DNA of 39,054 nucleotides from a virus (Duplodnaviria; Heunggongvirae; Uroviricota; Caudoviricetes). Positions 7,188-37,000 of this stretch are shown here, one piece after another (position 1 is the first letter of the stretch; each line of letters opens with the position of its first letter). A program made the translations under genes and the position numbers. The DNA lies in IMG/VR virus record IMGVR_UViG_3300047548_000621, positions 72,200 to 111,253 of that record. One strand, 5' to 3'. The notes under the pieces are model-generated. The model did no database searches. It was not told where the DNA came from and worked only from the letters and a program-made list of their open reading frames with translations.

Positions 7188-10100
7188 TTAAGTTCGTGAA
7201 TGTTGTAATATCTTATGGTTAGTATCGTGCGTGTCGTTCATTACATCAATCAACTCATCTAATTTCTGTCCTAGTTGTTCAGTGAGTTGCATATTTCTCA
7301 TATATACATTTTCCGTTTCAGCAGTTTTCGCGGTCATCTTACTTGTAGTATTGATTTCTGAAATATTGTCTGCTGGTTTCTTTCCTAATTTAGCTATGAT
7401 AGATTGAGGATTTAAAGAACCTATTTTGGAATCAAAATCCCCTTCCCCTTCACCGAAAATGCCGCCGTCTCTTGCTTTACTAATTTTAGTAGCCGGATCA
7501 ATTGTATTAGACGAATTAGGTACAGCTAGTCCGGCCTTTTGAATAATATAGTGTAGGTGCGGCCCGGTCGATATCCCTGTACTACCCATATCACCGATAT
7601 ATTGTCCTTGACTTACACGGTCGCCCTCATTAACTCCATATTTTGAAGTGTGTGTGTATACTGACTGATATCCATCATCCTGTTGAATTATGATTGCGTT
7701 TCCGAATCCAGTATAAGGGCGCCCATTATTAGTTAACTTAGTAACTATGCCTCCCTTAGCAGCACGTAAAGGTGCGCCCATTCCTTTACCGATATCTAAG
7801 CCAGTATGAAACTTCCTCGTACCAAACTTAGGATGTATTCTCATTCCATATGGGCTAGTTAATACTCCGCCCGCGACAGGGTGAATGTACCCGGCCTTTT
7901 CTTCTGCTATTGCATTTTGAGCAGCACTGGACGATGCTGCGGCATATTGTCCGGCAGCGTCAGCATAGGATTTAGAGTCCGCAGTATTTCCAGCTGCTGC
8001 TGATGCTCTTGCTTTATCTCTAGCTTCTTTAGCAAGAGTTTCATAAAATCTCGCTTTATCCTCTGATCCTAATTTATTTGCGTAATCTATAATCGCTGTT
8101 CTTCCCGATTGCATTGTAGGAGGCGGGCCTGCAGGGACTGAGGCGTTTGGACCGCTACCGGCATTTCCAGAACCGCCATCCGTACTTGCCGGGCCGCTTC
8201 CCGGAGGGGCACTGGCAGCAGCAACATTTCCTGCCAGTGCGCCCACTGTTTGAGCGTACTGTGCAAATGCCGCAGTATTTTTTTCCATATTGGGACCAAA
8301 CGTCATTCTTGTAAATTTATCGAATGCGTCAATAGGACCATCTTGTTTGGTCATAAATGAAACAATATTACCCGCAAAACTACTAAATGCATCCCACGCG
8401 CCGGGACCTCCTTTATATTCAGCCAATGCATTGGCAAAATCTTTAAAAGCAATTGCATTATTTTTTGTTTTTATTGGATCAATAGGTAACAATGAAAAAT
8501 ATAAAAATTTATCTAGTGGGGGCCGCTCACCAAAAAGCTTGACTACTGCATTTGACAATGCAGATGCAACAGATCCTAATACCCCTAGTTGACCTTCGCC
8601 ACGATAAGAAGACAATGCTTCTGCAAATAATTTGAATGCTGTTGCGTTTTCTTTAGCTCGCTTAGGATCTATCGGTAATTCTGAAAAATCTACAAACTTT
8701 TTGAATGGAGGTTCTTTACTAAAGAAGTTACTAACTGAATCAGAAATCGCTATTGCGATTGATCCAACCCCTTGCATAGGTCCTGCCACTGCCATTGCCT
8801 TTGCGAAAGCTACAAAAGCGCCGGCATTATTTTCTACTTTCTGCTTATTAATATCATATGCTTGGAATTTTACAAGATTTAATCCTAACGTTTTAATAGG
8901 ATCTTTATCTTCACCAAATGTAAACCATTCACCGATATTACCCAATGCATCTAATATACCCCCGGCACCCATTGCGAGTATGCCGGCTCCCAATCCCGCC
9001 ATTCCTATACCAGCTGATTTTAAGTTTTCTCCATTTACGCCATCAAACGATTTCAAACCTTCAGCTAATGAAGGCATAGATTTACCGAGTATCCAAGTCG
9101 CGCCGGCAAGGCCTGCACCAATTGCAGCAATTGCTATTCCTATCGCGCCGGCTCCAAGCGCAACGTATGCTGGGGTAGGAGGCTTACCTATGAAGGCTAA
9201 ACCTTTTCCTACCCCTTCTAAAAATCCAGCTACTAGTGAGCCTCCTCCTGTAGCAGAGCCGGCTTTTGATAATCCAGAAACACCTTTACCCAAACCAGAA
9301 GGAACAGCTCCTCCTAATTTTCTAGCTCTAGAAGCTCTTGCTGCTCCACTTAGTGGTTTACCGTTTTTGTCAAGCATATCTGCTTCTGGAATTGCGGCGG
9401 GACCGGATTCACTTCCGAAAAATCTTGAAAAAATTCCTCGTTTATTAGGAGAACTGGTGCCCATTCCCTCAATTTCAGCGATAGCCGGATTGTCCGCAGT
9501 ACCTAATTTTCCTTTACCCATTCCCAAAACAGACTTAATAACGCTACCCACTGACGCAACTGTTTGGATAACCTTACCTACTGCTGCAATTCCAGCAAGT
9601 CCTGCCAAAGCAATAGCCAATCCCTTCAAAACTTTGCCAATTGTATCTAAATTAGTAACCAAATATTCAGCAGCTTGATTTATCCGTGGCATAATCTTTA
9701 GTGCAAGTTGCACAAGATAATCAGAAACAGTTTTTAATACGGTATCAAATTGCAGTCTTGCTGCACGTTCAGCCGCTTCTTGTTTACCGCGCTGGTCTGT
9801 TGCCCCGCCCTCTTGGTTCTTTTTCTGCTCATATGCGTCTCGCGCATCGTCTGCAATTTTTCTTAGTGTCGCTTCATCTGCATCTGCTGTCGCCGCGCGC
9901 AATTTAATTCTGCCTGCGTCAATTGCATTCTGCGCCATAAAATCTCTTGAATACTGCCCCAGACCCGTAGCTGCTTCTTTATAATTTTGATTATAATTGT
10001 CCAGTCCCTTATTTGAAGCTGCAATAAATTCTAGACGCTGATCCATTCCCTGAGATGTTTTAGATACTATATCTAGCAAGCCCGGAATGTTTCTAACCAA

Positions 10101-11228
10101 CGGTGCTGAACTTTCAGTTACTACTGCTTCGCCGGTGGTTGATAATAATTCTAGCAACCCTTTTGCATTTTCTGGACTCATTTGTGCTGCCAATGCAGCA
10201 AGACCATCCTTTGACTTAATAATATTTTCAAGTCTTAGTTTTTCGTTTTCGTCTGTTGTCGCAGCGGCTTTTGCTTTTAAACTAGCTATATATGCATTGT
10301 AATTTTCATTGGCATACGCAGCCTCGAGATTGTCTTGTTGTTGTTTAGCACTAACTCCTGTAATATTTGCCAATACATTCAAACTATCCAAATATTGCAA
10401 TGATGCTTTTTGTAGTTGCTGAGGACTTTTGGTCATATCAACACCGGTCTTAGATTGGATTTCCATATACCGAGTTTGCGATTCAATCAAATCTTCCTGA
10501 GTATAACCTAACCTACGATATTGAATTAAAGTTCTATCACCTACTGCAATAAATTGTCCGAACTTAGTGACCCCTTCTGAAGTAGTAGTACCTAATGCCT
10601 TGAGTCCAGGTCCTAATCTAGCAGCATTTTTTGTAAATATTTCTAGATTTTGTGACGACAGTCCTGCTTTATGCGCTAATTCCAATATACCTTCTGCACT
10701 GGACCCTATTGCTCCCCCTAATTTAGCAACATCGTCATATCCTTTTACAACAGCATCATTGTATTTGAACGCTGCTGTCACTAAACTAGAAATAGCGCCC
10801 AATAATACAGAAGCAACTTTGCCCAAAGGACCAAAAACTTCTGCAAGGCCGCCGGCAGCTTCAGTTGCTCCTTTTACACTAGTCGCATATTTGGCCATAC
10901 CAGGAGTAGTATCTATCATTGCGCCGGCAAAGCCTAACAACGCTTTTTTACCCTCGTAAAACGATGCACTAAGTTTTCTATTTGCATCTGCTATCATTTC
11001 ATTTGCAGCAGCAGCAGCTTCAGTTTTTTTATTGTTTCCAGTTATTAGGTCATTTGCGGCCTTTTCACTTTTTACTGTGTTATCAACGTTTGTACTCTGA
11101 GTTTTTAATGAGGAGTTTAAACTAGATAAATTTTTATTTTGGGCGCCCAACATATCTGCCTGTTGAGCAAGCAATTCGCTCATCACTCGGAGTTGTTCGT
11201 TTAATTGTTCTTCAAGCGCAGTGTCCAT
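7188..11228 (-). CDS. Tape-measure-like tail protein B with C-terminal M23 metallopeptidase
   Basis: 1346 aa, Ala/Gly-rich helical with hydrophobic segments; M23 motifs FHTGLDIG (HxxxD) and TGPHLHY (HxH) at ~7490-7890. Confidence 0.8.
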   Translation of the reverse strand: MDTALEEQLNEQLRVMSELLAQQADMLGAQNKNLSSLNSSLKTQSTNVDNTVKSEKAANDLITGNNKKTEAAAAANEMIADANRKLSASFYEGKKALLGFAGAMIDTTPGMAKYATSVKGATEAAGGLAEVFGPLGKVASVLLGAISSLVTAAFKYNDAVVKGYDDVAKLGGAIGSSAEGILELAHKAGLSSQNLEIFTKNAARLGPGLKALGTTTSEGVTKFGQFIAVGDRTLIQYRRLGYTQEDLIESQTRYMEIQSKTGVDMTKSPQQLQKASLQYLDSLNVLANITGVSAKQQQDNLEAAYANENYNAYIASLKAKAAATTDENEKLRLENIIKSKDGLAALAAQMSPENAKGLLELLSTTGEAVVTESSAPLVRNIPGLLDIVSKTSQGMDQRLEFIAASNKGLDNYNQNYKEAATGLGQYSRDFMAQNAIDAGRIKLRAATADADEATLRKIADDARDAYEQKKNQEGGATDQRGKQEAAERAARLQFDTVLKTVSDYLVQLALKIMPRINQAAEYLVTNLDTIGKVLKGLAIALAGLAGIAAVGKVIQTVASVGSVIKSVLGMGKGKLGTADNPAIAEIEGMGTSSPNKRGIFSRFFGSESGPAAIPEADMLDKNGKPLSGAARASRARKLGGAVPSGLGKGVSGLSKAGSATGGGSLVAGFLEGVGKGLAFIGKPPTPAYVALGAGAIGIAIAAIGAGLAGATWILGKSMPSLAEGLKSFDGVNGENLKSAGIGMAGLGAGILAMGAGGILDALGNIGEWFTFGEDKDPIKTLGLNLVKFQAYDINKQKVENNAGAFVAFAKAMAVAGPMQGVGSIAIAISDSVSNFFSKEPPFKKFVDFSELPIDPKRAKENATAFKLFAEALSSYRGEGQLGVLGSVASALSNAVVKLFGERPPLDKFLYFSLLPIDPIKTKNNAIAFKDFANALAEYKGGPGAWDAFSSFAGNIVSFMTKQDGPIDAFDKFTRMTFGPNMEKNTAAFAQYAQTVGALAGNVAAASAPPGSGPASTDGGSGNAGSGPNASVPAGPPPTMQSGRTAIIDYANKLGSEDKARFYETLAKEARDKARASAAAGNTADSKSYADAAGQYAAASSSAAQNAIAEEKAGYIHPVAGGVLTSPYGMRIHPKFGTRKFHTGLDIGKGMGAPLRAAKGGIVTKLTNNGRPYTGFGNAIIIQQDDGYQSVYTHTSKYGVNEGDRVSQGQYIGDMGSTGISTGPHLHYIIQKAGLAVPNSSNTIDPATKISKARDGGIFGEGEGDFDSKIGSLNPQSIIAKLGKKPADNISEINTTSKMTAKTAETENVYMRNMQLTEQLGQKLDELIDVMNDTHDTNHKILQHSRT

Positions 11229-11234
11229 CTTTTA

Positions 11235-14200
11235 TCAAACCCTCATTGCTCTTAATGTTTTTTGTTTAGTGTATTTGTTTTTCTTAGCAATCTCTAATAC
11301 CTGATCAATCTTTGCTAACACCATGTATCTCATATCATTGTCATTTTCTATTATTTTTTCTATAGTCAATCCCAGATTTCCTATTATAGGCATCACTGGT
11401 TTATCAGATGATGAAATAATGTCTGCTAAGATTTCTTCAGTATTTTCATCTGCATTCTGTGCTAATCTACTTAATATAGAATTTTTTAATGCCGGGATAA
11501 TAATTTCAGTGCCGTGCAACTCAATGGGATAACCGCCGGTAGGGCCTGAATAAAGCCCTCCTGTCCTTGCTATTCCATATCTTTTAGCCATTGTTGCAAC
11601 TCTATGATCTAAGTCAGCCGTTGTAATTTTACCATCGTGCGGATTTACATCTAACCCTTTATTTGAGTTATAATATTTTTCCGGTGCTTGTGTTAATACA
11701 AAATTATTGTTCCTAGCCGGTAAAAAGATATACCCATATAATTTACCAGGCGAAGCTCCTTGCAAATGACTGCGATGAGGAGCCAAGAAAGAATCTACAT
11801 ATTTCATTTGCTGTGCCCTAGGCATTCCCCTCAAGGCACCGGTTGATGTTCCCATTGCTGCGGCTGTGCTAGGCATAAACTGAATTAGGCCGGTTGCTCC
11901 TCCTTTTGGATTTGTAGCAGCAGGATTCAATCCGCTTTCAGAAGCCATCATTCCCAAAAGATTACCAGGGGCAAAACCATATTTTTGGGAAACTCTGTTA
12001 ACCTCTGAGAGAAACTCTTTATCTTCTTTCCATGGTCCTCTAGCTTTTGAAATATCCAGAACATTACCTACGGAGGAAATAGCAGCGCCGGCCATTGAAC
12101 CTATTGTGCTGGCCGCGGAACTAATAGCATTTCCTGCGGCAGTTGCTAATCCAACAACTGCCGAAGATATGCCGTTCCCCACTATTTTACCTAAATTCGC
12201 AGAGCCTTGTCCGGACAAAATTGACATAGCCACTGCAAAATCAAAAAACGCTAAAGCATTTTTAGTGGCGTTGGGACCAAAATTGTATTTCGAAGGGTCA
12301 CTAAATTTTTGAAAAGCTTCTATAGGACCATCCTGGCTAAATAGGTGATTTATAGCAGTTCCTACCATAGAACTAATTTGACTAACTAAATTTCCGGTTC
12401 CCTTATAAGATGCCAACGCTTCACTAAACAATCTAAATGCTGTTGCATTTTCTTGAGTTCGCTTAATATTAATTGGCAAAAATGAGAAGTACAAAAACTG
12501 ATCAACCGGAGGACGTTGTCCAAAAAATTTCACGGTTGAGTCAGATATTAATGTAGCTATTTGACCTAGAGTGCTGCCATTTCCCTTAAATGAGAACATG
12601 GCACTTGCGTAGTCACTAAATGCCATAGCATTATCTCTTACTTTATTAACATTGATATCAAGTGCCTCAAACAATAATAGTTTGTCAAACGGCGGATTCT
12701 TTTCGAAGAAATTGCTTACTGCTCGTGCTGCGGCTGATAATCCACTTATGCCTTTTAGTAAAGCCATTGCACCCATTGCTTTAGCAAAGGCAATTGCCGC
12801 TTCTCCACTTTGCTTAATTTTATCTGGATTTACTCCTGTCGTCATTGCTTGGAAATTAACTAATTGATCTGCCGCCTTCTCAAGAGAAGATTTTCCACCA
12901 AACAGTGTTCCTAGATTGGTAATTGCTTCTAACACGTTTCCTACACCTAGAGCAATGATTCCAAATCCTATGCCGGCCATCCCTATACCAACGCCTTTAA
13001 GATTTTGTCCATCCACTTTGTTAAATGCAGATAGACCTTCAGCAAATGTAGGTAAAGTCTTTCCTACCATCCAAGTTGCGCCGGCAATGCCGGCTCCTAT
13101 TTCAGCGATTGCTGCACCTAATGCAGCGGCGCCTAGGGCAATTTGACCTGCTGAAGCTGCTGCATTCTTAAATGCTTGCAGTATACCACTTTCATCATTA
13201 GTTACATCTTCAGCAATATCGCCACCAATGCCCAATTTAGCTAGTCGCGAATCTAAAGCTGCGCCGCCCAGGATGTTACCGTGCTTGTCTAATAAATCTT
13301 CTTTCCTAAATTTAGGTATAGTAGCGCCTGATACTTTTCCAAACAGACTAGATCCGGCGGCTAGCCTTATATGTAATTTATTTCTCCGTGAAGATCCAGG
13401 TTCTCCGCCGCGTCCTATTAAAGACAAGCCTGCATCTTTAATAGACTTAAAAGTGTTTACTACCTTCCCAGCGATTGCAACACCAGACATTATACCTAAT
13501 ATAATACCTAATCCTTTTAGACCGATCTCAATTTCTGGCATATGAGTTTTGACAAAAAGTATCGCTTGCGTAACAAGCGGAATCATTTGGTTAATTAATT
13601 CGTTTACTTTAGGGGATATAGATTGCATAACTGTATCCCAATTCTTACGAATATCACGTTCATAACTTTCTATCTGAGAACGTTCTGCAATCGCGGTATC
13701 TTCCTGTCTCTTAGCCTCTTCTAGTTTCGCCTTTTGATCCGCAGCCATTCTTCTAAAATCAGCAACATTACCTCTACCAAATCTCGCTGCATTTTCTCTG
13801 GAGTTATTCCCTATCATATAATAATCTTGAAAGTTTCTAGATGCAGCACCCACACTAAAGACTAAACCCTCTGTCTCAGTTTCTGACCTTCTAACCAAAT
13901 CTCTATTCATTTCAAGTAAATCACCAGTTACATTTTCTCCTTTACTAAGTCGCGTCATTATACTTAAAAAATTAGGTGCCACTTGTGCTAATTGCGCACT
14001 TGAGGCTGTTAACACCGGCGGACCTTTTGTAGATGCAGTTTCTAATATAGCAGTAGCCATCTTAGGATCAAGTGCTTCAGCAAAGGTTGCCGCTTCTCTT
14101 TTAGCATCAATTAATGCTTGAATTTGATCACGTTCTACCCCTGTTGTAGCGTTCGCTTTATCTCGCTCTAATTCTGCAATATGGGCCCTAAAATTTTCTT

Positions 14201-15119
14201 GTTGCATTGCTAGGGCTAATAGATCCTGTTGTTTTTTTGCACTTACACCGGTTATCTCCGCCAAAATGTTTAATTTATCAATGTACGCTAGTGAGGCTTT
14301 TTGCAATTGTCTAGGACTTTGAGTCATCATTGCCCCGCCTTCGGCTTGAAGCTTAGCATAATTTGCCATTGTATCTATTAATTCTTCTTGGGTATAACCC
14401 ATTTTCCTATAATATTGTAAATTCTTGTCACCTACGGCAATCATTTGCCCAAATACTTGAACACCTTGCCCTGTTGTTATTCCTAAATTTTTGATGGCAG
14501 GGCCCATATCTTCAACTGCTTTGGTCAAATATGTTAATGTTCCCGAAGACAGATTGGCTTTATGTCCTAAGTCAAGTATGCCTTCAGCACTATTTCCAAT
14601 TCCGCCGCCCGCTCTAGCAACTTTATCATAACTATCTACTATATTATCTTGGAATTTTAAAGAACTTGTTGCCACTTCGCCTATTATACCCACCAGCGAC
14701 CCGGCTACTTTACCTAATGGGCCAAATATAGATAGTATGCCGCCGGCAGCTTGAGATAATCCGGTTATCCCGCCGGCATATTTACTCATTCCCGGAGTGC
14801 TATCAACTACTGAACTAGCAAAGTTTAAAATGGCATCCTTACCTGTTCTCAGTGAGGTAGAAAATTGAGAAGACGCTTCTTCTACTAATCTAGTAGCTTC
14901 CTGTGCAGCTTGACTTTTCTTGATATTTCCGGACACTGCAACATCGTTTGCGAGCCTTGCTTTTTGTGTATTACTAGTAGCGTTTAATTTATTTTTATTA
15001 GAAATATTTACAGAATTCAAAGCGGCGACCTGGCTAGCCATAATATTATTTTGTTTGGCAATTAAGTCATTAATTGTAGCAATTTGATCATTCAATTGTG
15101 TTAGTAGCTCAGGATCCAT
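11235..15119 (-). CDS. Tape-measure-like tail protein A with lytic transglycosylase (SLT-like) domain
   Basis: Paralogue of the downstream gene; MMASESGLNPAATNPKGGATGLIQFMPSTA (catalytic ES, GLxQ) at ~11595-12025; ATG at 15119 preferred over the track's TTG at 15125. Confidence 0.8.
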   Translation of the reverse strand: MDPELLTQLNDQIATINDLIAKQNNIMASQVAALNSVNISNKNKLNATSNTQKARLANDVAVSGNIKKSQAAQEATRLVEEASSQFSTSLRTGKDAILNFASSVVDSTPGMSKYAGGITGLSQAAGGILSIFGPLGKVAGSLVGIIGEVATSSLKFQDNIVDSYDKVARAGGGIGNSAEGILDLGHKANLSSGTLTYLTKAVEDMGPAIKNLGITTGQGVQVFGQMIAVGDKNLQYYRKMGYTQEELIDTMANYAKLQAEGGAMMTQSPRQLQKASLAYIDKLNILAEITGVSAKKQQDLLALAMQQENFRAHIAELERDKANATTGVERDQIQALIDAKREAATFAEALDPKMATAILETASTKGPPVLTASSAQLAQVAPNFLSIMTRLSKGENVTGDLLEMNRDLVRRSETETEGLVFSVGAASRNFQDYYMIGNNSRENAARFGRGNVADFRRMAADQKAKLEEAKRQEDTAIAERSQIESYERDIRKNWDTVMQSISPKVNELINQMIPLVTQAILFVKTHMPEIEIGLKGLGIILGIMSGVAIAGKVVNTFKSIKDAGLSLIGRGGEPGSSRRNKLHIRLAAGSSLFGKVSGATIPKFRKEDLLDKHGNILGGAALDSRLAKLGIGGDIAEDVTNDESGILQAFKNAAASAGQIALGAAALGAAIAEIGAGIAGATWMVGKTLPTFAEGLSAFNKVDGQNLKGVGIGMAGIGFGIIALGVGNVLEAITNLGTLFGGKSSLEKAADQLVNFQAMTTGVNPDKIKQSGEAAIAFAKAMGAMALLKGISGLSAAARAVSNFFEKNPPFDKLLLFEALDINVNKVRDNAMAFSDYASAMFSFKGNGSTLGQIATLISDSTVKFFGQRPPVDQFLYFSFLPINIKRTQENATAFRLFSEALASYKGTGNLVSQISSMVGTAINHLFSQDGPIEAFQKFSDPSKYNFGPNATKNALAFFDFAVAMSILSGQGSANLGKIVGNGISSAVVGLATAAGNAISSAASTIGSMAGAAISSVGNVLDISKARGPWKEDKEFLSEVNRVSQKYGFAPGNLLGMMASESGLNPAATNPKGGATGLIQFMPSTAAAMGTSTGALRGMPRAQQMKYVDSFLAPHRSHLQGASPGKLYGYIFLPARNNNFVLTQAPEKYYNSNKGLDVNPHDGKITTADLDHRVATMAKRYGIARTGGLYSGPTGGYPIELHGTEIIIPALKNSILSRLAQNADENTEEILADIISSSDKPVMPIIGNLGLTIEKIIENDNDMRYMVLAKIDQVLEIAKKNKYTKQKTLRAMRV

Positions 15120-15154
15120 TAGCAACCTTATTTTTTTAAGTGTAGTTTTTGCCC

Positions 15155-15182
15155 ACTAAATATATGTTATAATCTATTTAGT
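15155..15182. promoter_or_regulatory. Face-to-face late promoter pair (ACTAAATA on + at 15155-62, on - at 15175-82)
   Basis: Exact inverted 8-mers in the divergent gap between the tape-measure and gp26-like genes. Confidence 0.7.
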
Positions 15183-15207
15183 ACCGTCAAAACCAAGAGG
15201 AAATGTA

Positions 15208-16032
15208 ATGAATAATAACCCACTTAGACAATATTTTAGGAGACCGGCAGTTTACCTAAGGCTCCCTTCAGGAGGAAAAGACTATGCTGAGGGTATAATT
15301 GATTTACCAGAAAACGGAGAAATTCCGGTATACCCAATGACCGCAATTGATGAAATTACTACGAGAACACCAGACGCATTATTCAATGGAACGGCATTAG
15401 CAGAACTCATTAAAAGCTGTATTCCAAATATCAAAGATCCATGGGCAGTAAGCAGTAATGATATGGATGCTATATTAATATCAATCAAAGCAGCATCAGG
15501 CGGCGACACATTGGATATCGATACGGTTTGTCCTGCTTGCGAAGAATCAAATATTTACGGTATAAATTTATTGTCGATGCTTGCCAGTCTTAAACCTAGT
15601 GACTATGAAAAAGAATTAGAATCCGGTGAACTATTCATTAAATTTAAACCACTCAAGTATAAAGATATGAATGATGCTGCGATCGGTCAATTTGAACTGC
15701 AAAGAACTTTAGTCACCTTAGACAATATTGAATCAGAAGAAGAAAGAAATGCAGCAGGAAAACAAGCACTAGAGAATATCACAAATCTTACAATGGAAAT
15801 ACTCAGCAAGACTATCGATTATATCAAGACTCCTACTATTATAGTCCGAGAACAGGAGTATATTCTTGATTTCTTAAGAAACTGTGATAAGAATATTTTC
15901 ACTGCAATAAAAGATTTTAATACGGAACTCAAAGCTGCTAGTGAAATTAAACCAATACATATCACTTGCGCAAGCTGCGGTCACGAATACGATCAACAAT
16001 TTACATTAAGTCCCGTAGATTTTTTCGAATAA
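15208..16032 (+). CDS. gp26: T4 gp26-like baseplate hub / tail assembly chaperone
   Basis: NPLRQYFRRPAVYLRLPSGG, PVYPMTAIDE, TPDALFNG; two CxxC motifs (CPAC, CASC); GAGG RBS. Confidence 0.8.
   Translation: MNNNPLRQYFRRPAVYLRLPSGGKDYAEGIIDLPENGEIPVYPMTAIDEITTRTPDALFNGTALAELIKSCIPNIKDPWAVSSNDMDAILISIKAASGGDTLDIDTVCPACEESNIYGINLLSMLASLKPSDYEKELESGELFIKFKPLKYKDMNDAAIGQFELQRTLVTLDNIESEEERNAAGKQALENITNLTMEILSKTIDYIKTPTIIVREQEYILDFLRNCDKNIFTAIKDFNTELKAASEIKPIHITCASCGHEYDQQFTLSPVDFFE
16020..16026 (+). other. Candidate -1 ribosomal frameshift slippery heptamer T-TTT-TTC
   Basis: X-XXY-YYZ heptamer in the correct phase two codons before the gp26 stop; the -1 frame stays open to 16256. Confidence 0.7.
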
Positions 16033-16256
16033 GGCTTCTTAATTCTAGCCCCGAAGATATCCAGAAGCTATTAGAACAATACGAAAAAGAAATTGAGGGG
16101 ATTAAGAAGGGCGCATTAACCATGGCTTGGTATATGCGCGGCGGGGCATCATATGAGGATATCCTCAACATGTCCGACAGCGAGAGAAAGACTATTAACC
16201 AAATCATAGAAGATAATTTAGAGATAACTAAAAAGTCTCAAATGCCCTTCTTTTAA
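16026..16256 (+). CDS. gp51/GT-like C-terminal extension reached by -1 frameshift (or a 44-aa protein from ATG 16122)
   Basis: RIRLLNSSPEDIQKLLEQYEKEIEGIKKGALTMAWYMRGGASYEDILNMSDSERK; resembles small T4-like gp51 and P2 E'/lambda T segments. Confidence 0.7.
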   Translation, partial: RIRLLNSSPEDIQKLLEQYEKEIEGIKKGALTMAWYMRGGASYEDILNMSDSERKTINQIIEDNLEITKKSQMPFF

Positions 16257-16258
16257 CA

Positions 16259-16306
16259 GTTGATCTTCGATCAACTAGACTCTCACTACGTTCGGTCTAC
16301 TTTTTT
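16259..16306 (+). terminator. Double hairpin plus T6; terminator for the gp26 transcript
   Basis: GTTGATC-TTC-GATCAAC, then TAGAC...GTCTA, then TTTTTT at 16301-16306. Confidence 0.65.
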
Positions 16307-16309
16307 AAT

Positions 16310-16700
16310 TCTGTAAGACAATAACACTGAAGGGATATACATTGCCGGTTTAGAAGCCATGGTAGTGCTCCTCAGAGGCACTACCAAAGTTAGGACTTGC
16401 CATGGCCCGTCATCCTTTGCCGTCTATCCCCCGTTAAACTAGCCCTTAATGCTGTTTAACGTCACCGGTTGCCCTGTAAGATTTGATGGGGCTGTAGTGA
16501 AGCTATAAAGTGGAACTCACTTTACTCTTCGGCAACGCATGTCCTATAGCATCAAGACAGAATAGCTATAGACTCATTCAAGGTTCGCCTACCTAGCGAG
16601 AGCCTTGTCGGTGTTCCCTAGGATCACTCCTAGGCATACTCCAGAATCCGACCGCATTCATTCGTGGTGCAGTCTCAAGGAGGATCAAAAGATCAATATC
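16310..16700 (-). ncRNA. Candidate large structured non-coding RNA (class not recognised)
   Basis: No ORF >=60 aa; dense helices including CCTAGGA-GUGA-UCCUAGG (GNRA loop), GGUAGUGC/GCACUACC, GUUAAAC/GUUUAAC and an 11-bp long-range helix with two G-U pairs on the minus strand. Confidence 0.65.
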
Positions 16701-16719
16701 GATGTAAAAGGGTTCTGTA

Positions 16720-17268
16720 TTAGGTTTCTAAAGTAATAATATTTGTAGTGATATCTTTAGGTGAGCCTGAGTATGCTTTAAGAAGGTCTTTGTTGAGCCT
16801 GAAAAAATGTTCGAATTCCATAATAATCCATTCGCCTGACTTCTCAGAACGATAATGAATAAAGTTGTCAGCAACCCAAGTCATCTTGGATTCAACTGCT
16901 ACAAACTTACCCTTACGATTAAACTTCATAAACAATATGTTACAATCATTATCTTCTGCAACATCCATTAATTGTTTTAACCAAGTGTCTATGACCTTAC
17001 ATTCACCTGTTGGTAATAGATGAAAGGGGAAATCTGCATAACTTTTGCATTCTGCGTTGAACAGTTTAAATGTTTCACCGGGCACTATATCTCCCTTGAA
17101 ACTTCTTACTTGTCCTTCGTGTAAATACTGTTTTCTTGATTGATTCTTGCCACCAACATATGCCCCAGAACCCGGGGCACGAATAAAACTCTCATTATAA
17201 GTTTTGGTTAAAAACTGAGCAATCTCACGCTCAAAGCTTGAACCTTTATTTTTACTCGGTGATGGCAT
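16720..17268 (-). CDS. Holliday junction resolvase-like PD-(D/E)XK nuclease
   Basis: KNKGSSFEREIA...RAPGSGA...GDI...ECKSY (Hjc-type motifs); adjacent to gp46. Confidence 0.8.
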   Translation of the reverse strand: MPSPSKNKGSSFEREIAQFLTKTYNESFIRAPGSGAYVGGKNQSRKQYLHEGQVRSFKGDIVPGETFKLFNAECKSYADFPFHLLPTGECKVIDTWLKQLMDVAEDNDCNILFMKFNRKGKFVAVESKMTWVADNFIHYRSEKSGEWIIMEFEHFFRLNKDLLKAYSGSPKDITTNIITLET

Positions 17269-26101: not shown

Positions 26102-29100
26102 ATGCCAACAGATGTAAATTTTCCCATTACTAAACCACCCAAAATTCTATCTCCTCAAGGTGCCGGCGGAAATAGCAACACAACACCCTTGATCGGTGTT
26201 GTAAAGGACAATATTGATCCTACTAGATCGGGTAGAATTAGAGTAGCACTGCAAAGAGGAAAAGGCGCACAAGATCCTAATAGCAGCGAGGGATGGGTAA
26301 CTGTCCAAAAACTCAGCAACTTTTTTGGATCGGTAGGGGGAGATGCGGGCACCGACGTTGAAGATCACGGAACTTATAAAACAAACCCAAGCTCATATGG
26401 AATGTGGCACGCTCCGCCGGATATAGGCACGCAAGTTGTTTGCATCTTTATTAACGGGGATCCTAATTATGGATTTTATATCGGTTGTATTCCTGAACCT
26501 GAAAAATTACAAATGGTTCCTGCTATAGGTGCAGTTGATAACGTTACATTAAACGAAAGCGAAGCTAATAGTTATGGTGGTGCAACTAGATTGCCGACTA
26601 CTAATATGAACGTAAACAACAAGAGTAAATCTGATAGCGCACAATTTTTAGAGACAGCAAGACCTGTACATAGTTACACTGCAAGTATTATGATGCAGCA
26701 GGGTATATTGCGTGACGCGGTAAGAGGTCCCATATCATCTAGTGCAAGCCGAGAAACTGCAAGCCGAGTTGGCTTTGGCGTAAGCACTCCGGGCCGACCT
26801 ATATACACCGGTGGCTTCGATGATACTAATTTACCTAAAAACTTAGAAACCAGTAATAACGAGAAACTTCAAGTGGTGGCTCGTAGAGGCGGACATAGTA
26901 TCGTTATGGATGACGGTGATGTTATTGGCCGCGATCAGTTAATCAGAATAAGAACTAGTCTTGGTCATCAAATAATGATGAGTGATGATGGTCAAACATT
27001 AATGATATTACATAGCAATGGTCAAAGTTATGTTGAGTTAGGCAAAGAAGGTACAGTTGATATCTATAGTACTAACAGCTTTAATGTAAGAACACAAGGG
27101 GATATTAATTTTCACGCCGACCAAGATATTAATATTCACGCAATGGAAAATCTAAACATACAAGCTAAAAATATTCATTGTAACAGTGAAGAAATGACTA
27201 AGTTCAGGGCCGGCAAAGATTTTAATGTCAATGCCTTAAGCAATTTTACTGCCAAGTCTGGGTCTGCTGCTGCAATATCAGCTGGTGGCGAAGCAAGTCT
27301 AGTAGGAGGTGGAGCTACTTTTGTTAATGGTGCTAAAGTTAATATCAATAGTGGTGCACCCGGACTTAATCCGCCCGAAGTACCTATTATCACATTAAAC
27401 GCCCAACCAGATACACTGTTCGATGAAGAAAAGGGCTGGGCAGCAGCGCCTGGTAAATTATTGACTGTAACGAGCAGAGCGCCGGCACACGCCCCGTGGG
27501 CATCGGCAGGACAAGGAATAAGTATCAAGACTTCTGCTAGCGCGTCAGACAGCTTACCACCTACACCCTCAAATGCAGTGCAACAAGCTAATCAAGCAGG
27601 ACAGAATGCAAATTCAACCCCTCCTTCTACTGCAACCGTTGCTAGTGTTCCACAAACCAAACCAGTTAGCCCTTCAGTCGATACGGGAACTACCGGATCA
27701 ACATTAGCAGCGGTAGGCAAAGCAGCAGCCAACGGAGCGACTGCCCCGGCTGTTCAAAAAGGTGCTGCTATTATTTCTAGCGGACAAAACCCAGCAGAAG
27801 GCGGGTCCACTGCAACTGTTGCCGCCGGAGCATTTGGTCAAACTGCAAAACAACTTGCTGATTCAGGTGTAATTAAACCCGGAGCTGATAAACTGATTAA
27901 TGGTCTTGCAAGTGTTGCTCAAACTGCTGGCAAAGTAATTGGTGTAACTAAAATACTTAGTAACACGTTGTTTACTGGCCAACAAGGCGCGGAAACAATT
28001 GGTAAGTTCGCAACTAATGTTGAAGCTCAAGCCAAGTCAGTGATCAACACATTGCAAAAAGGACAAACGTTATTGACACAAGCCGGAGTAATTTCCGGTA
28101 AAGAAACTCCTACGCAAACAGCCGGGCTTGTCGTTGCGGCTGCGACTACAGGAGCGAACAATACAATTAATGCCGTTAAAGAGTCTGCTAACAAGCTTGC
28201 TGCAATTGGAAATGAAGTAACTGATTTCGGTGATGCTGTAGGAAATACTATTACTAAAGTTGGAGGGTCGATAGGTGGAGAAGTTGGCGCTACACTTAAT
28301 AAGGTAAGCGACACTATTAACCAATTCTCAAGTAAAGCAGCATCAGTTACTAACGCATTAGGTAAAGCATCAAGTGCATTAAATGCAATAGGATCAGGAT
28401 CTTCTGCTGCTGGACAAGCAGCGTCATTAGGAGGATTAGCAGGTATTGCTAATGCAGTAGGAGCATTGACAGGAGGCAGTGGTCCTAGTTTATCATCATT
28501 GATTAACTCAGTTAATGGTATTGCAGCAGGAGCATATGATGCTATCAAGAATGGTTTCCCCAAACTAAAAGCCAATGTACCACAGAAACTATCTGCTATT
28601 GCTAAAGAAGCAGCCGCTAAAAGTGCTGCTACTGCACAAACTACTACGAATGCAGCCAAGTCAGGTGGGCTAAGCAGTTTAGCTGGAGGTGTTGGAAAAG
28701 TATTATCTGGCGCAACTAGTGTCGTTAATACTATTACTGAGGGTACTAAAACTATTGAAAATACTATAGGCGGGGTCTCCGGCGCTATTAATAATGCAAC
28801 CGCAACAAGTGGAAATAATAATAATGCGATTAGTGGTGTAACTGGCGCAATCGAAACGGGACTGAATAAGCTTACAACCGGCGCACAACAGGTCTCGGGC
28901 GTATTATCCGATGCAGGAAATGTAGCTACGTCTCTATCGAATATCACGTCCGGCGGAACTGGTAGTAATAGTGTGGGAGGGACATTATCTAATTTGGCTG
29001 GAGCAGCAAGTGATGTTACCGGATTCATTAATAAAGCAACTGGCGCATTAGGCGATGTTACAGGCGGAGTTAACAAAGCGATCAACACAGTCAACGGTCT

Positions 29101-30076
29101 GGCTGGCGCAGGAGCTGCATTGAAGGGCGGACTAAGCGATCTTGCAAACGCTGCCAAGAATGTACAAGCCGGGGGCAATGCTGCCAAGGCAGTGCTTCAA
29201 GCGGCCGGCATTAATAATTTACCCGGCGGACTTAATGCTATCGCATCCGTAGCAGATAAAAAGAATGCTCCCGTACACATTCCGGGCGCAAAAGAATTGA
29301 CTAACTTAGCAAATACTGTAGGGTCTGGATTAAATGCAGCTAAAGATGCATTGGGTAAAGTGGGCGACATTGCTGGTAAGGCTAGCGGAGTACTCAATCA
29401 AGTTTCAGGAGTAGCAAGTGACGTTTCTGGTGCAGTCGGTACCGTTTCTGGTGTCGCCGGCCAAATTGGAGGAGCAGTAGGAGCGGCACAGGGAGCATTA
29501 GGAAATGCAACCGGCGATATCGGTAATTTAGCTAACAAAGTAACTAGTGTTGCTGATAAGTTAGGTGGAGTCGCTAGTGCATTAGGTGATGCAGGAAAGA
29601 AATTAAATGGAATTACATCATCAATAACCGGTGCATTGAATTCCGGTGAAGCGTCCAGTCTGTTATCAAGTTTGTCTGCATTGGGCGCGGGCGGACCAAG
29701 TCCAATCAAATTACCAGAAGTGGGCTTTAATACATTTAACAGAGATGGAATCACAAGTCAAGTTAATTCGTTGTTAGGAGATCCCGGTATTCCTAAGCCA
29801 AACTTGGTAGGGGAAGTCAGCGATGACACAGTAAACTCTCTAAATCAAAAAGTTGAAACATCAAGAGAAGCGATTAAGAAAGCAAATGATGAATTGAATC
29901 AAGCCATAGCTGATACGCAGATGGCAAAACAAATGGCAATTAAGGCAATAGATCAATCTGCTTCACCAGAAAGTGATCCTAATGTTCAGAATTTGAAGAA
30001 AGCTTGGCAAGAAAAAGTTAAAATTATGAAGGAAAAAGCAGACAAGCTTGCAGCGTTAGAGTCGGCAGCAGCTTAG
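26102..30076 (+). CDS. Central spike (gp5/VgrG-like OB fold plus beta-helix) with ~850-aa C-terminal extension
   Basis: GVVKDNIDPTRSGRIRV and PPDIGTQVVCIF (OB fold); RRGGHSIVMDD...GHQIMMSDD beta-helix repeats ending near FVNGAKVNINSG. Confidence 0.8.
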   Translation: MPTDVNFPITKPPKILSPQGAGGNSNTTPLIGVVKDNIDPTRSGRIRVALQRGKGAQDPNSSEGWVTVQKLSNFFGSVGGDAGTDVEDHGTYKTNPSSYGMWHAPPDIGTQVVCIFINGDPNYGFYIGCIPEPEKLQMVPAIGAVDNVTLNESEANSYGGATRLPTTNMNVNNKSKSDSAQFLETARPVHSYTASIMMQQGILRDAVRGPISSSASRETASRVGFGVSTPGRPIYTGGFDDTNLPKNLETSNNEKLQVVARRGGHSIVMDDGDVIGRDQLIRIRTSLGHQIMMSDDGQTLMILHSNGQSYVELGKEGTVDIYSTNSFNVRTQGDINFHADQDINIHAMENLNIQAKNIHCNSEEMTKFRAGKDFNVNALSNFTAKSGSAAAISAGGEASLVGGGATFVNGAKVNINSGAPGLNPPEVPIITLNAQPDTLFDEEKGWAAAPGKLLTVTSRAPAHAPWASAGQGISIKTSASASDSLPPTPSNAVQQANQAGQNANSTPPSTATVASVPQTKPVSPSVDTGTTGSTLAAVGKAAANGATAPAVQKGAAIISSGQNPAEGGSTATVAAGAFGQTAKQLADSGVIKPGADKLINGLASVAQTAGKVIGVTKILSNTLFTGQQGAETIGKFATNVEAQAKSVINTLQKGQTLLTQAGVISGKETPTQTAGLVVAAATTGANNTINAVKESANKLAAIGNEVTDFGDAVGNTITKVGGSIGGEVGATLNKVSDTINQFSSKAASVTNALGKASSALNAIGSGSSAAGQAASLGGLAGIANAVGALTGGSGPSLSSLINSVNGIAAGAYDAIKNGFPKLKANVPQKLSAIAKEAAAKSAATAQTTTNAAKSGGLSSLAGGVGKVLSGATSVVNTITEGTKTIENTIGGVSGAINNATATSGNNNNAISGVTGAIETGLNKLTTGAQQVSGVLSDAGNVATSLSNITSGGTGSNSVGGTLSNLAGAASDVTGFINKATGALGDVTGGVNKAINTVNGLAGAGAALKGGLSDLANAAKNVQAGGNAAKAVLQAAGINNLPGGLNAIASVADKKNAPVHIPGAKELTNLANTVGSGLNAAKDALGKVGDIAGKASGVLNQVSGVASDVSGAVGTVSGVAGQIGGAVGAAQGALGNATGDIGNLANKVTSVADKLGGVASALGDAGKKLNGITSSITGALNSGEASSLLSSLSALGAGGPSPIKLPEVGFNTFNRDGITSQVNSLLGDPGIPKPNLVGEVSDDTVNSLNQKVETSREAIKKANDELNQAIADTQMAKQMAIKAIDQSASPESDPNVQNLKKAWQEKVKIMKEKADKLAALESAAA

Positions 30077-34082: not shown

Positions 34083-34088
34083 TGATAT

Positions 34089-37000
34089 ATGGCTAGAATC
34101 AGAACACTAAACTTTTTACCTGAAGTTTTTCAAACCCCAACCAACAGCCAATTTTTGGCAGCTACACTTGATCAGATAGTAAGTGAGCCTAATACTGTTA
34201 AGCAACAAGGCTATATCGGCAGTAAGTTAGGTTATGGAGTGAATGCTCTCGACTACTATGTTACTGAACCAACTAAAACCCGAGTTGACTATCAGTTAGA
34301 TCCAAGCGTTGTTTTCACAAAGCCCAATGAAACTATTGCACAAGATTTTATCACATATCCCGGTATACTTGACGCATTAAAATTGCAGGGAAGCATCACT
34401 GATGATAACAGTGAGCTTTTCCAAAGTCAATTTTATTCTTGGGACAGCTTTGTTGATCTGGACAAGTTGGTTAACTATCAAGAATATTATTGGTTGCCAG
34501 AAGGTCCACCTAGTGTTTCTGTTTCTCCCGGATTAGTATATTCAGTTGAAGAATACATCGTAACAGATTATGACAATCAATATGGAATTAACGAGAAGAC
34601 AGCACAGAATAGTGGTCCGTTAAATCCAACATTAACGTTATTGCGCGGCGGATCATATACCTTTTCTGTTAATCAAAACAGTCAGTTCTTTATTCAAACT
34701 TTGCCGGGCACTAGCGGATATAGCCCCATTCAGCCTAACATCCCTACACGAGAAGTATATGGAGTAGAAAACAATGGCGCGTCAACAGGATTTGTAACAT
34801 TTGATGTTCCCTTAAAAGATGCACAAGACGAATATGATTTCCCGGGTAATAATATAGTAGATTTAATTTGCACTACTCCGTTTAGTCAGGTCAATGGTCA
34901 AATACTAGGCACGTTTACTGATCCAGCGACCGGTGTAACATATAATGGATTGAGCGACATTGACGGCATTACCGGTATCGATGGTTTACGAATTATGTTC
35001 TATAACACCGGTATCTCAAATGAAGTAGGATATATCAATTCATATTACGGTGAGACTTCATATGACGTAAATGATGATTATTTTACTTCTCCATTGACAG
35101 TAGAAATAAGTTCTACCACTAATAGTGGTTCATATCTAACTCTTGGAACAGGGTATACCACTGATCAGTTAATCGTTAATCAAACTATTACTTTTGATAC
35201 TCCTACACTCGGCGGGCTATCACAAAATGTAGTTTATTTTGTAAAAGAAATATTAAATTCCACAGACTTTACAATCAGTGAATATATTGAAGGCCCTGCT
35301 CTCAGCGTAAATGATGATGCTGGAACAATGATTGCTAACATTAATCAAGGACAATATCAACAGGGATTTTATAGCACAGTAAATGATAACTTCTATCGCG
35401 TACAATTAGTAGGAACTGGCCCGAATCCTACAATTCGTTTATTACCAGATGGCACTATCCCCACTAATCAAAAGATAACACCACAATTCGGTGTTACTTA
35501 TATTAATCGTCCTTTCTATCGCAATGTAAACGGTGTAATTGGGTTAATTCCTATTATTACTGCACCATTAGATGTGTTATACTATCAAGATGGCACTAAC
35601 CCAAATAAAGTTGGGGAAATTCGTTTAGTTGACACTAACGCAGACAATTATATTAATGTCGATACTCAGATTATCGGCAAAGTAAATTATACTAGTCCAA
35701 ACGGTGTTGCATTTACAAACGGATTAAAGATAATATTTCAAGGTAATATTTTCCCTAGTAGATATTTAAATCAAGAATATTATGTCGAGGGAGTTGGAAC
35801 TAGTATTGAATTGGTTCCTGTATTAAGTCTAGAGTGCCCTGAGAAGTTTACAATTGGAGAATATATTCCCTGGGATATGTTTGGATTTGACGCAGGCCCC
35901 TGGGACATTAGTTTAAATATTCCTGTTTTACCTGACTATATTACTATTGCAAGAAACAGCATTAACAAAAATGCCTGGTCGCGCAGCAATCGTTGGTTCC
36001 ATACTGATATCATCACTCAGACGGCAAACTACAATAATAATCCAGACATTTTAACTAGGTATGCAACACTAGAGAACAAGGCGAAAAGGCCAATCATAGA
36101 GTTCTACCCTAACATCAAATTGTTTGATAGCGGATCTGTTGGTAAAAACGCAGTTGATTTCTTCGACACACGAACAACAGATGCTTTTAGTGAGGTTGCG
36201 GGATTATATAATTATTATCCTGACGTAGAAGTTTATACAAAAAATACAGCAGTAATTGACAGCACAATAACTAGCCCTGTATCATCAAGCAGTTTGATTG
36301 TTGGTAAGACATATGTTATTACCAGTAAGGGCACGACAAACTGGAATACGGCTGCCGGGACAACAGGCTTTTATTATGTAGAAGGGCAAATATTTGTTTG
36401 TGAGTCTACTAGTGTTGGAACAGGAACAGCTACTGAACTAGCATATGGGACAACTATTACCATACCCACAGCAGATATTAATGGTACATTCCAAGAAGGA
36501 ATGTATGTTGCAGATTATAATAATGTACTTCCTGTTAACACACAACTCGATAACATACAAATTGTAGGGTCAGATACTATATTAACCGTTTCCTGGGATC
36601 AACCTCAAAATGTTGATACTACTACTACGGTTATTGTAGGATCAGATAGCACAGTAAATGCATACGCAGTATATCCGGGAGCAAGAATTGTTTTTGCTAA
36701 TGATAGTGATCTACAAGTAAGAAATAAAATCTATGTTGTAGATTATGCAACAATTGGAACAAGTTCACAGCCTATTATTGTATTAAGTCCTGCTGAAGAT
36801 AGTATGCCATTACCTGATGAAATGATTGCAGTTAATAGAGGGTATAATTATCAAGGTAAAAGTTTTTACTATAATGGTATTATGTGGGATGAAGCGCAAT
36901 TAAAAATTGATGTTAATCAACCTCCCAAGTTTGATGTGTTTGATAACAATAATATAAGTTTCGGTGACACTGATGTTTATAATAGCAGCACCTTCAAGGG

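Follow-up and report, generated by a model that had tools for sequence, protein, structure and literature searches.

A conserved putative -1 frameshift site at the end of a gp26/gp51-family hub assembly gene in T4-like phages

How might a phage with one gene of the gp26/gp51 family provide the two forms of hub assembly protein that T4 encodes in separate genes 26 and 51? This question is raised by a gene at 15208-16032 on the plus strand of a 39,054-nt stretch of DNA from an uncultured, T4-related giant phage of the Caudoviricetes (positions 72,200 to 111,253 of IMG/VR record IMGVR_UViG_3300047548_000621; hereafter the window). The gene ends GAT TTT TTC GAA TAA in its own reading frame (the 0 frame), and a preliminary description of the window, made from the sequence alone, proposed that a -1 frameshift at this end fuses a gp26-like protein to a gp51-like tail. 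Sequence comparison makes it highly probable that this gp26-family gene is decoded in two ways through a -1 ribosomal slip on T TTT TTC. Support for the frameshift comes from synonymous sites that do not vary, from coding constraint on the -1 frame beginning within the heptamer, from the failure of any start codon to be conserved and from covariation in a downstream hairpin. The elements concerned are as follows.

15208..16032, plus strand: gp26/gp51-family hub assembly gene, 0 frame, predicted short product of 274 aa (Pfam, PHROG and AlphaFold2 (AF2) evidence).
16020..16026, plus strand: slippery heptamer T TTT TTC (phase X XXY YYZ), which places a Phe codon in each of the P and A sites; invariant among relatives.
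16030..16032, plus strand: 0-frame stop TAA, one codon past the heptamer; same spacing in most loci of the clade described below and in 63/63 cyanophage loci.
16026..16256, plus strand: gp51-like tail of the predicted 349-aa long product, 76 codons (CGA ... TTT) and TAA (conserved peptide, hhalign and AF2 evidence).
16033..16069, plus strand: putative frameshift-stimulating stem-loop, arms 16033-16039 and 16063-16069, 23-nt loop, 6-7 nt past the heptamer.

The open reading frame (ORF) at 15208-16032 begins at an ATG with GAGG 7 nt upstream. Its product matched Pfam PF12322 (T4_baseplate) with an E-value of 6e-19 and 69 bits (cut-off 24.5) over profile positions 15-218 of 219. Since the match extends to position 218, the whole family domain precedes the slip site. 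The product also matched the PHROG family phrog_150, 'baseplate hub' (E 9e-19). Its AF2 model had a predicted local distance difference test (pLDDT) score of 88, and the top BFVD matches of this model were annotated 'baseplate hub assembly protein, T4-like', with template modelling (TM) scores of 0.85-0.89 and E-values down to 5e-23. The ORF is a member of the gp26/gp51 family. T4 gp26 (208 aa) and T4 gp51 (249 aa) both match PF12322 end to end, gp51 adding a tail of ~48 residues, and the profile of PHROG 150 is covered to position 226 of 282 by the window's 0-frame product and to 280 of 282 by gp51. In the 244-kb record PF12322 matched a single gene, and the extension likewise occurred once. 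Identity to T4 was too low for tblastn, which returned no match in the T4 comparison, and a blastn search of the phage collection with the locus gave none either.

To the gene we compared 48 IMG/VR relatives (33-63% identity) and cultured phages, a clade set of 47 distinct ORFs. The heptamer TTTTTTC was present in phase in 47/47 of these, down to 33% protein identity. A tblastn search with the 76-aa extension led to Agrobacterium phage Atu_ph07 and Sinorhizobium phage Phosso, both of which end the gene with CAT TTT TTC GNA TGA; together with PA5oct, PBECO4, RaK2, XaC1, CBB and a Vibrio phage they make eight cultured jumbo phages with the heptamer. The codon 5' of the heptamer varied between GAT, AAT, CAT, AGT, ACT, CGT and TAT, encoding D, N, H, S, T, R or Y, and its third base was T throughout. 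The second Phe was encoded by TTC throughout the clade, while TTT accounts for 66% of the Phe codons elsewhere in the same genes. Given x-Phe-Phe and the codon usage of the genes themselves, an in-phase TTTTTTC is expected by chance at 0.156 per lineage; its presence in 47/47 ORFs therefore exceeds chance. The preliminary description was correct as to the coordinates of the heptamer, its phase and the terminal GAT-TTT-TTC-GAA-TAA.

The same arrangement was found beyond the clade. Cyanophage S-PM2 has one PF12322 gene, whose 3' end reads TCT TTT TTC GCA TAA. Directly after this gp26 gene lies the annotated 'gp51, baseplate hub assembly catalyst' (S-PM2p208, 57 aa), which corresponds to the -1 frame but is recorded as an independent small gene, a difference from the window. 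All of the distinct S-PM2-like loci (63/63) carried the in-phase heptamer, and in each the stop follows after one further codon. In Aeromonas phage Ah1 (Straboviridae) the sequence reads GAT TTT TTC GAC TGA and the -1 frame is open; in Melnitz it is T TTT TTT. A scan of IMG/VR with T4 gp26 returned near-identical T4 relatives only, and the controls were drawn from individual records. The marks of a programmed -1 site, an in-phase X XXY YYZ heptamer and conservation at synonymous sites, were thus present at 47/47 and 63/63 distinct loci. These counts also answer the check that had been suggested at the outset, namely whether homologues keep a terminal Phe-Phe encoded by T TTT TTY together with an open -1 frame.

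After a -1 slip the product would read ...VDFF-RIRLLNSSPEDIQ... and remain open for 76 codons to the TAA at 16254-16256. In the clade alignment the extension peptide was conserved from the slip site onwards, with the pattern FFR.(R/K)LL..PE.I ... WYMRGG ... NMS..ER ... PFF. The base after the heptamer was G in 46/47 ORFs, and together with the last C of the heptamer it opens a conserved Arg codon (CGN) of the -1 frame. Because this Arg codon spans the last base of the heptamer, it would be readable only by a ribosome that enters the -1 frame from inside the heptamer. At 18/45 distinct loci an in-frame stop shuts the -1 frame directly before the heptamer. The 0-frame stop lies 3-11 codons downstream in PA5oct, CBB, RaK2, XaC1 and two further loci (L011 and L039); in these later-stop loci the -1 peptide was conserved (FFRSQLLQLEATEI, FFRGQLLSEDYEEV and similar) but the 0-frame tails were not. 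Modelled alone by AF2, the extension had a pLDDT of 89 and was all helical, with helices beginning at the junction. The lengths computed for the two products, 274 aa and 349 aa, were those given in the preliminary description.

Downstream of the heptamer, GCTTCT at 16034-39 and AGAAGC at 16063-68 are complementary, and the stem can be extended by G16033/T16069. Across 38 aligned loci, cognate arms paired with a mean of -9.6 kcal/mol compared to -6.7 kcal/mol for non-cognate pairs from other loci. The pairing of cognate arms was matched in 0/5000 permutations and the result held with 30 representatives below 70% identity, a statistic that is inflated by the kinship of the sequences. Compensatory arm variants included GGCUUCU/AGAAGCU, GAGACUCUUAA/UUAAGAGUCUU, GGCUCUUG/CGAGGGCC and AUCCUAGUAU/AUAUUAGGA, some of them in a shifted register. 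A stimulator is expected 5-9 nt downstream of the slip site and to covary, and at the sequence level the hairpin has both properties. The preliminary description had further proposed a pseudoknot. Its first stem, GCTTCT/AGAAGC, is present and covarying, but the second, TTCTA/TAGAA, was not supported, as its cognate arms paired no better than non-cognate ones (549/5000 permutations). An Rfam scan of 15000-17000 detected no frameshift element or other RNA family, and a promoter and terminator scan gave nothing above shuffles.

We propose that most ribosomes would read GAT TTT TTC GAA and stop at TAA, releasing a 274-aa product that would be the counterpart of T4 gp26. A minority would slip back one base on U UUU UUC (16020-16026) with tRNA-Phe in the P site (UUU) and in the A site (UUC), probably assisted by the hairpin at 16033-16069 and perhaps also by the nearby 0-frame stop. 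The slipped ribosomes would then read CGA AUA AGG ... for 76 codons to give the 349-aa product, whose extra helical tail would be the equivalent of the one at the C terminus of T4 gp51. A single gene would in this way supply short and long hub-assembly chaperones at a fixed ratio, as counterparts of the products of T4's paralogous genes 26 and 51. The short/long pair, like lambda G/GT, may act on the tape-measure-like neighbours in hub and tail-tube initiation. We infer both the ribosomal nature of the slip and its efficiency.

The same 349-aa protein could be made by ordinary translation if RNA polymerase added one U in the six-U run. Such transcriptional slippage would give an identical product (D-F-F-R...), and it would fit the fact that the invariant element is a homopolymer, T6, extended to T7 in Melnitz. 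However, the run is fixed at six T and C in 110 distinct sequences, with no drift to longer runs, and four other in-phase T6 runs in these ORFs carry no sign of use. Known bacterial slippage sites usually require longer runs of A or T than this T6. The covarying hairpin, too, lies at a spacing typical of ribosomal stimulators. Slippage by the polymerase is therefore an improbable source of the long product.

A different explanation is that the downstream frame is a second gene, translated either from ATG 16122, with AAGAAGGG as its possible Shine-Dalgarno sequence, or through reinitiation of terminating ribosomes at the overlap with the stop. Short separate coding sequences (CDSs) are indeed annotated in S-PM2 (gp51, 57 aa), PBECO4, CBB, XaC1, Phosso and Atu_ph07, and an ATGA overlap occurs in Atu_ph07, Phosso and five IMG/VR loci. 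In the window, however, the overlap position reads ATA, not ATG (ATG in 7/42 clade sequences). The first start of the -1 frame at or after the heptamer is ATG 16122, at codon 34 of the conserved peptide, and relatives have L, Y, F or S in place of its Met. This confirms the earlier statement that the -1 frame is open for 76 codons with no start codon near the gp26 stop. Among the loci the first ATG, GTG or TTG past the heptamer was found anywhere from codon 3 to codon 38, and one locus had none; likewise, the Met annotated as the start of S-PM2 'gp51' is kept in only 35/63 S-PM2-like loci. The preliminary description had named production of the downstream ORF only from ATG 16122 as fatal to the frameshift, and the scattered starts and replaced Met speak against such an origin. 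Two genes would also leave the invariant heptamer, the NNT wobble base and the heptamer-spanning Arg codon unexplained. We consider this arrangement less probable still than slippage by the polymerase.

Separate genes do occur elsewhere in the family. In Pseudomonas phage Cygsa01 (phiW-14-like; locus L067, 2290-2482) the gp26 gene ends ATT TTC ACC TAA TG without a heptamer, and a gp51-like ORF begins at the ATG that overlaps the gp26 stop (TAATG). This lends the two-gene explanation a precedent, since it indicates that a separate small gene does occur in the family. At the sequence level, Cygsa01 represents a third evolutionary state, beside the frameshift and the two paralogues of T4.

A Phe-Phe pair is kept throughout the family, T4 gp26 included, and also occurs close to the gp51 junction. 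That the heptamer merely mirrors this pair, with an unexpressed -1 open frame, is the least probable explanation and is contradicted by the conservation data, because the homologous pair in T4 gp26 is encoded GAG TTC TTT without a heptamer, the other Phe-Phe pairs in the clade ORFs (n=12) are TTT TTT in seven cases and TTC TTT or TTC TTC in five, and the -1 frame peptide is conserved and confidently folded by AF2. T4, which has separate genes 26 and 51 and no heptamer, can serve as a natural control for the frameshift in such sequence comparisons.

We then considered the relation of the extension to the tail of gp51. The gp51-type long form consists of PF12322 and a C-terminal tail (PF28602 in precomputed lists), and the relation was tested by hhalign against a gp51 alignment. 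A profile of the extension aligned with the end of the 17-member gp51 alignment with a probability of 80.6% (E 1.3e-5), the ends of the two coinciding. When 43 fused products were compared with the gp51 alignment, one colinear stretch ran across the junction (47-338 against 31-248; hhalign probability 85%, E 6e-6), placing FFR.RLL..PEEI over (V/I)FKLLLNPDEIF and SYED.LNMS..ER over Y..SIM.M.P.ER. The cyanophage extension matched the T4 gp51 tail with an hhalign probability of 95.9%. The link was seen solely with the gp51 alignment: hhalign against a single gp51 sequence gave 8% only, BLASTP of the extension against T4 gp51 was insignificant, Pfam and PHROG searches with the single extension sequence gave no match, and a BFVD search with the extension model was uninformative. 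As gp26 and gp51 share PF12322 and the fused product is colinear with gp51, the description of a gp26-like protein fused to a gp51-like tail fits these results.

Several points weigh against the proposed frameshift and its link to gp51, in addition to the kinship that inflates the permutation statistics. The homology between the extension and the gp51 tail is moderately supported and not decisive at 80-85%, and the extension of the window matched that of the cyanophages weakly (probability 30%), with the same motif. Arm pairing of the hairpin is weak in several loci, and the window's own downstream 84 nt fold no better than shuffles (z = -1.1). A second paralogue is possible because the 244-kb record is only 71% complete. 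Independent initiation may contribute in some lineages, because an overlapping ATG is found in the 7/42 clade sequences noted above and an ATG lies five codons into the -1 frame in 35/63 cyanophage loci.

T4 gp26 and gp51 are listed as chaperones of hub assembly, and gp51 is not part of the particle although assembly needs it (Leiman et al. 2010, PMC3004832). The gene of the window belongs to the same PF12322 family. T4 gp26 ends just past the conserved Phe-Phe (...EFFELL*), as does the predicted short product of the window, and T4 gp51 is colinear with the predicted long product, C-terminal tail included. Gene 26 of T4 is divergent from 51-27-28-29, and the window gene is likewise divergent from hub and tape-measure-like genes. 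The two systems differ in that T4 has two full-length paralogous genes and no heptamer, whereas the window would obtain both forms from one gene and a -1 slip.

A conserved -1 frameshift in the tail assembly chaperone genes of long-tailed phages was reportedly described by Xu, Hendrix and Duda in 2004. Atkins et al. (2016, PMC5009743) describe this G-T frameshift as conserved among long-tailed phages 'except T4'. Like lambda gpG/gpGT, the window has a heptamer near the end of a putative tail-assembly chaperone gene, a second frame that lacks its own start, a signal kept despite divergence and adjacent tape-measure-like genes, and would make a short major and a C-terminally extended minor product. 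As in a G/GT-type system, the sequence points to a single gene that yields both a short and a long product through a -1 slip and whose second frame has no separate start. The genomic placement differs: the lambda pair lies between the tube and tape measure genes, co-oriented with and directly upstream of the latter, whereas the window gene is divergent. A further difference is that the T4 homologues of the window gene work in baseplate-hub assembly. Another comparison is offered by E/E+E' of the myovirus P2, two tail chaperones produced through -1 slippage on a T run. Its slip site is T TTT TTG. However, the P2 proteins belong to an unrelated family and their genes immediately precede the one for the tape measure. 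We found no report of a gp26/gp51 frameshift in the literature and databases searched, most subscription journals lying outside the search. The locus would represent a tail-chaperone-style frameshift in an unrelated protein family, apparently unreported for gp26/gp51.

Two giant genes lie next to the gp26-family gene on the opposite strand.

11235..15125, minus strand: 1296-aa neighbour with a lytic transglycosylase domain, candidate tape-measure-like protein (Pfam SLT E 3e-8, residues 1043-1094; phrog_13530, phrog_196, phrog_2013).
7188..11228, minus strand: second giant gene, 1346 aa, with a C-terminal metallopeptidase domain, second tape-measure-like candidate (PHROG matches, residues 1066-1268).

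The PHROG families matched by the 1346-aa protein comprise endolysin, metallo-endopeptidase and tape-measure families. The divergent 1296-aa neighbour has counterparts in RaK2, PBECO4, PA5oct, XaC1 and CBB, and in the RaK2 record it is described as similar to a tape measure protein. In CBB the counterpart of the 1296-aa neighbour, CBB_251, was detected in virions by mass spectrometry (PMC5259590); that virion proteome paper does not mention a frameshift. The genes surrounding the gp26-family gene form a T4-like structural and replication module that includes the major head protein, prohead protease, portal, gp46/47-like nuclease, late sigma factor and gp5-, gp25- and gp6-like baseplate genes. 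Downstream of the gene are an endonuclease gene and the gp46/47-like genes.

The gene pair had been described as a tape-measure chaperone transcribed divergently from its two substrates. The divergence from two giant genes is borne out, and the chaperone part draws on analogy and neighbourhood: the listing of the T4 proteins as hub chaperones, the lambda-like logic of short and long forms, the divergent tape-measure-like neighbour and the presence of its CBB counterpart in virions. Together these suggest that the gene may have a tape-measure-chaperone role. Homology and fold searches did not add to this. Pfam and PHROG assigned the gene product to the gp26/gp51 families only and to no known tail assembly chaperone family, a PDB profile search against solved structures gave nothing below E 0.35, and Foldseek and VIA-align against solved structures returned generic helical-hairpin matches only (Z <8).

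If the frameshift operates as proposed, its meaning may reach beyond this locus. Jumbo phages (Rak2-like, PA5oct-like and Atu_ph07-like), cyanophages and one or more members of the Straboviridae share the slip site, and this distribution suggests that the frameshift could be ancestral. We give about even chances to a wider reading in which the T4 superfamily as a whole has its missing G/GT equivalent in the gp26/gp51 frameshift, which T4 and its near relatives replaced by a duplication in which one copy was fixed per frame. The helical tail of the long form would then be the module linking the tape measure or hub with whichever partner joins next in assembly, a role that the T domain of lambda plays for the tube protein. 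Such a history, if true, would account for T4's two paralogous hub 'chaperones' and for gp51 being needed only catalytically. Nearly all long-tailed phages are considered to use tail-chaperone frameshifting, T4 being the named exception (PMC5009743), and a strictly conserved gp26/gp51 slip site in T4 relatives would close this gap. The ratio of short to long product would be open to manipulation, which would provide a handle on the assembly of the baseplate hub and tape measure.

The -1 frame was given as a joined CDS in 0/12 inspected database records. Its annotation (records L001, L051-L056, L065 and L070) is absent in PA5oct and RaK2 and elsewhere consists of a truncated 'hypothetical protein' or 'gp51' of 40-70 aa, the start varying by record. 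Since the 12 inspected records miss or truncate the downstream frame, many jumbo-phage and cyanophage genomes probably need their annotation corrected.

Some further features of the window were noted. ARAGORN called a phage tRNA-Phe (GAA) of 82 nt at 34086-34167 on the minus strand, overlapping the start of a 1655-aa ORF on the opposite strand. The call would bear on the Phe-Phe slip site; it is probably false, and the Rfam tRNA model finds none in the 244-kb record. Past the stop of the extension, ~460 nt (16257-16719) have no credible ORF, Rfam match or terminator-like site. The gap before the endonuclease gene is ~800 nt in PBECO4 and CBB and ~365 nt in RaK2. Antisense ORFs inside giant genes, at 8632-9678 (plus strand, 348 aa) and 28027-29187 (minus strand, 386 aa), are probably compositional artefacts. 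The giant genes at 7188-11228 and 11235-15125 lie side by side, each with a cell-wall hydrolase domain near its C terminus, and such pairing is unusual. Finally, a homing-endonuclease-like gene (phrog_655, E 3e-40) at 260-1015 on the minus strand adjoins the major head protein gene.

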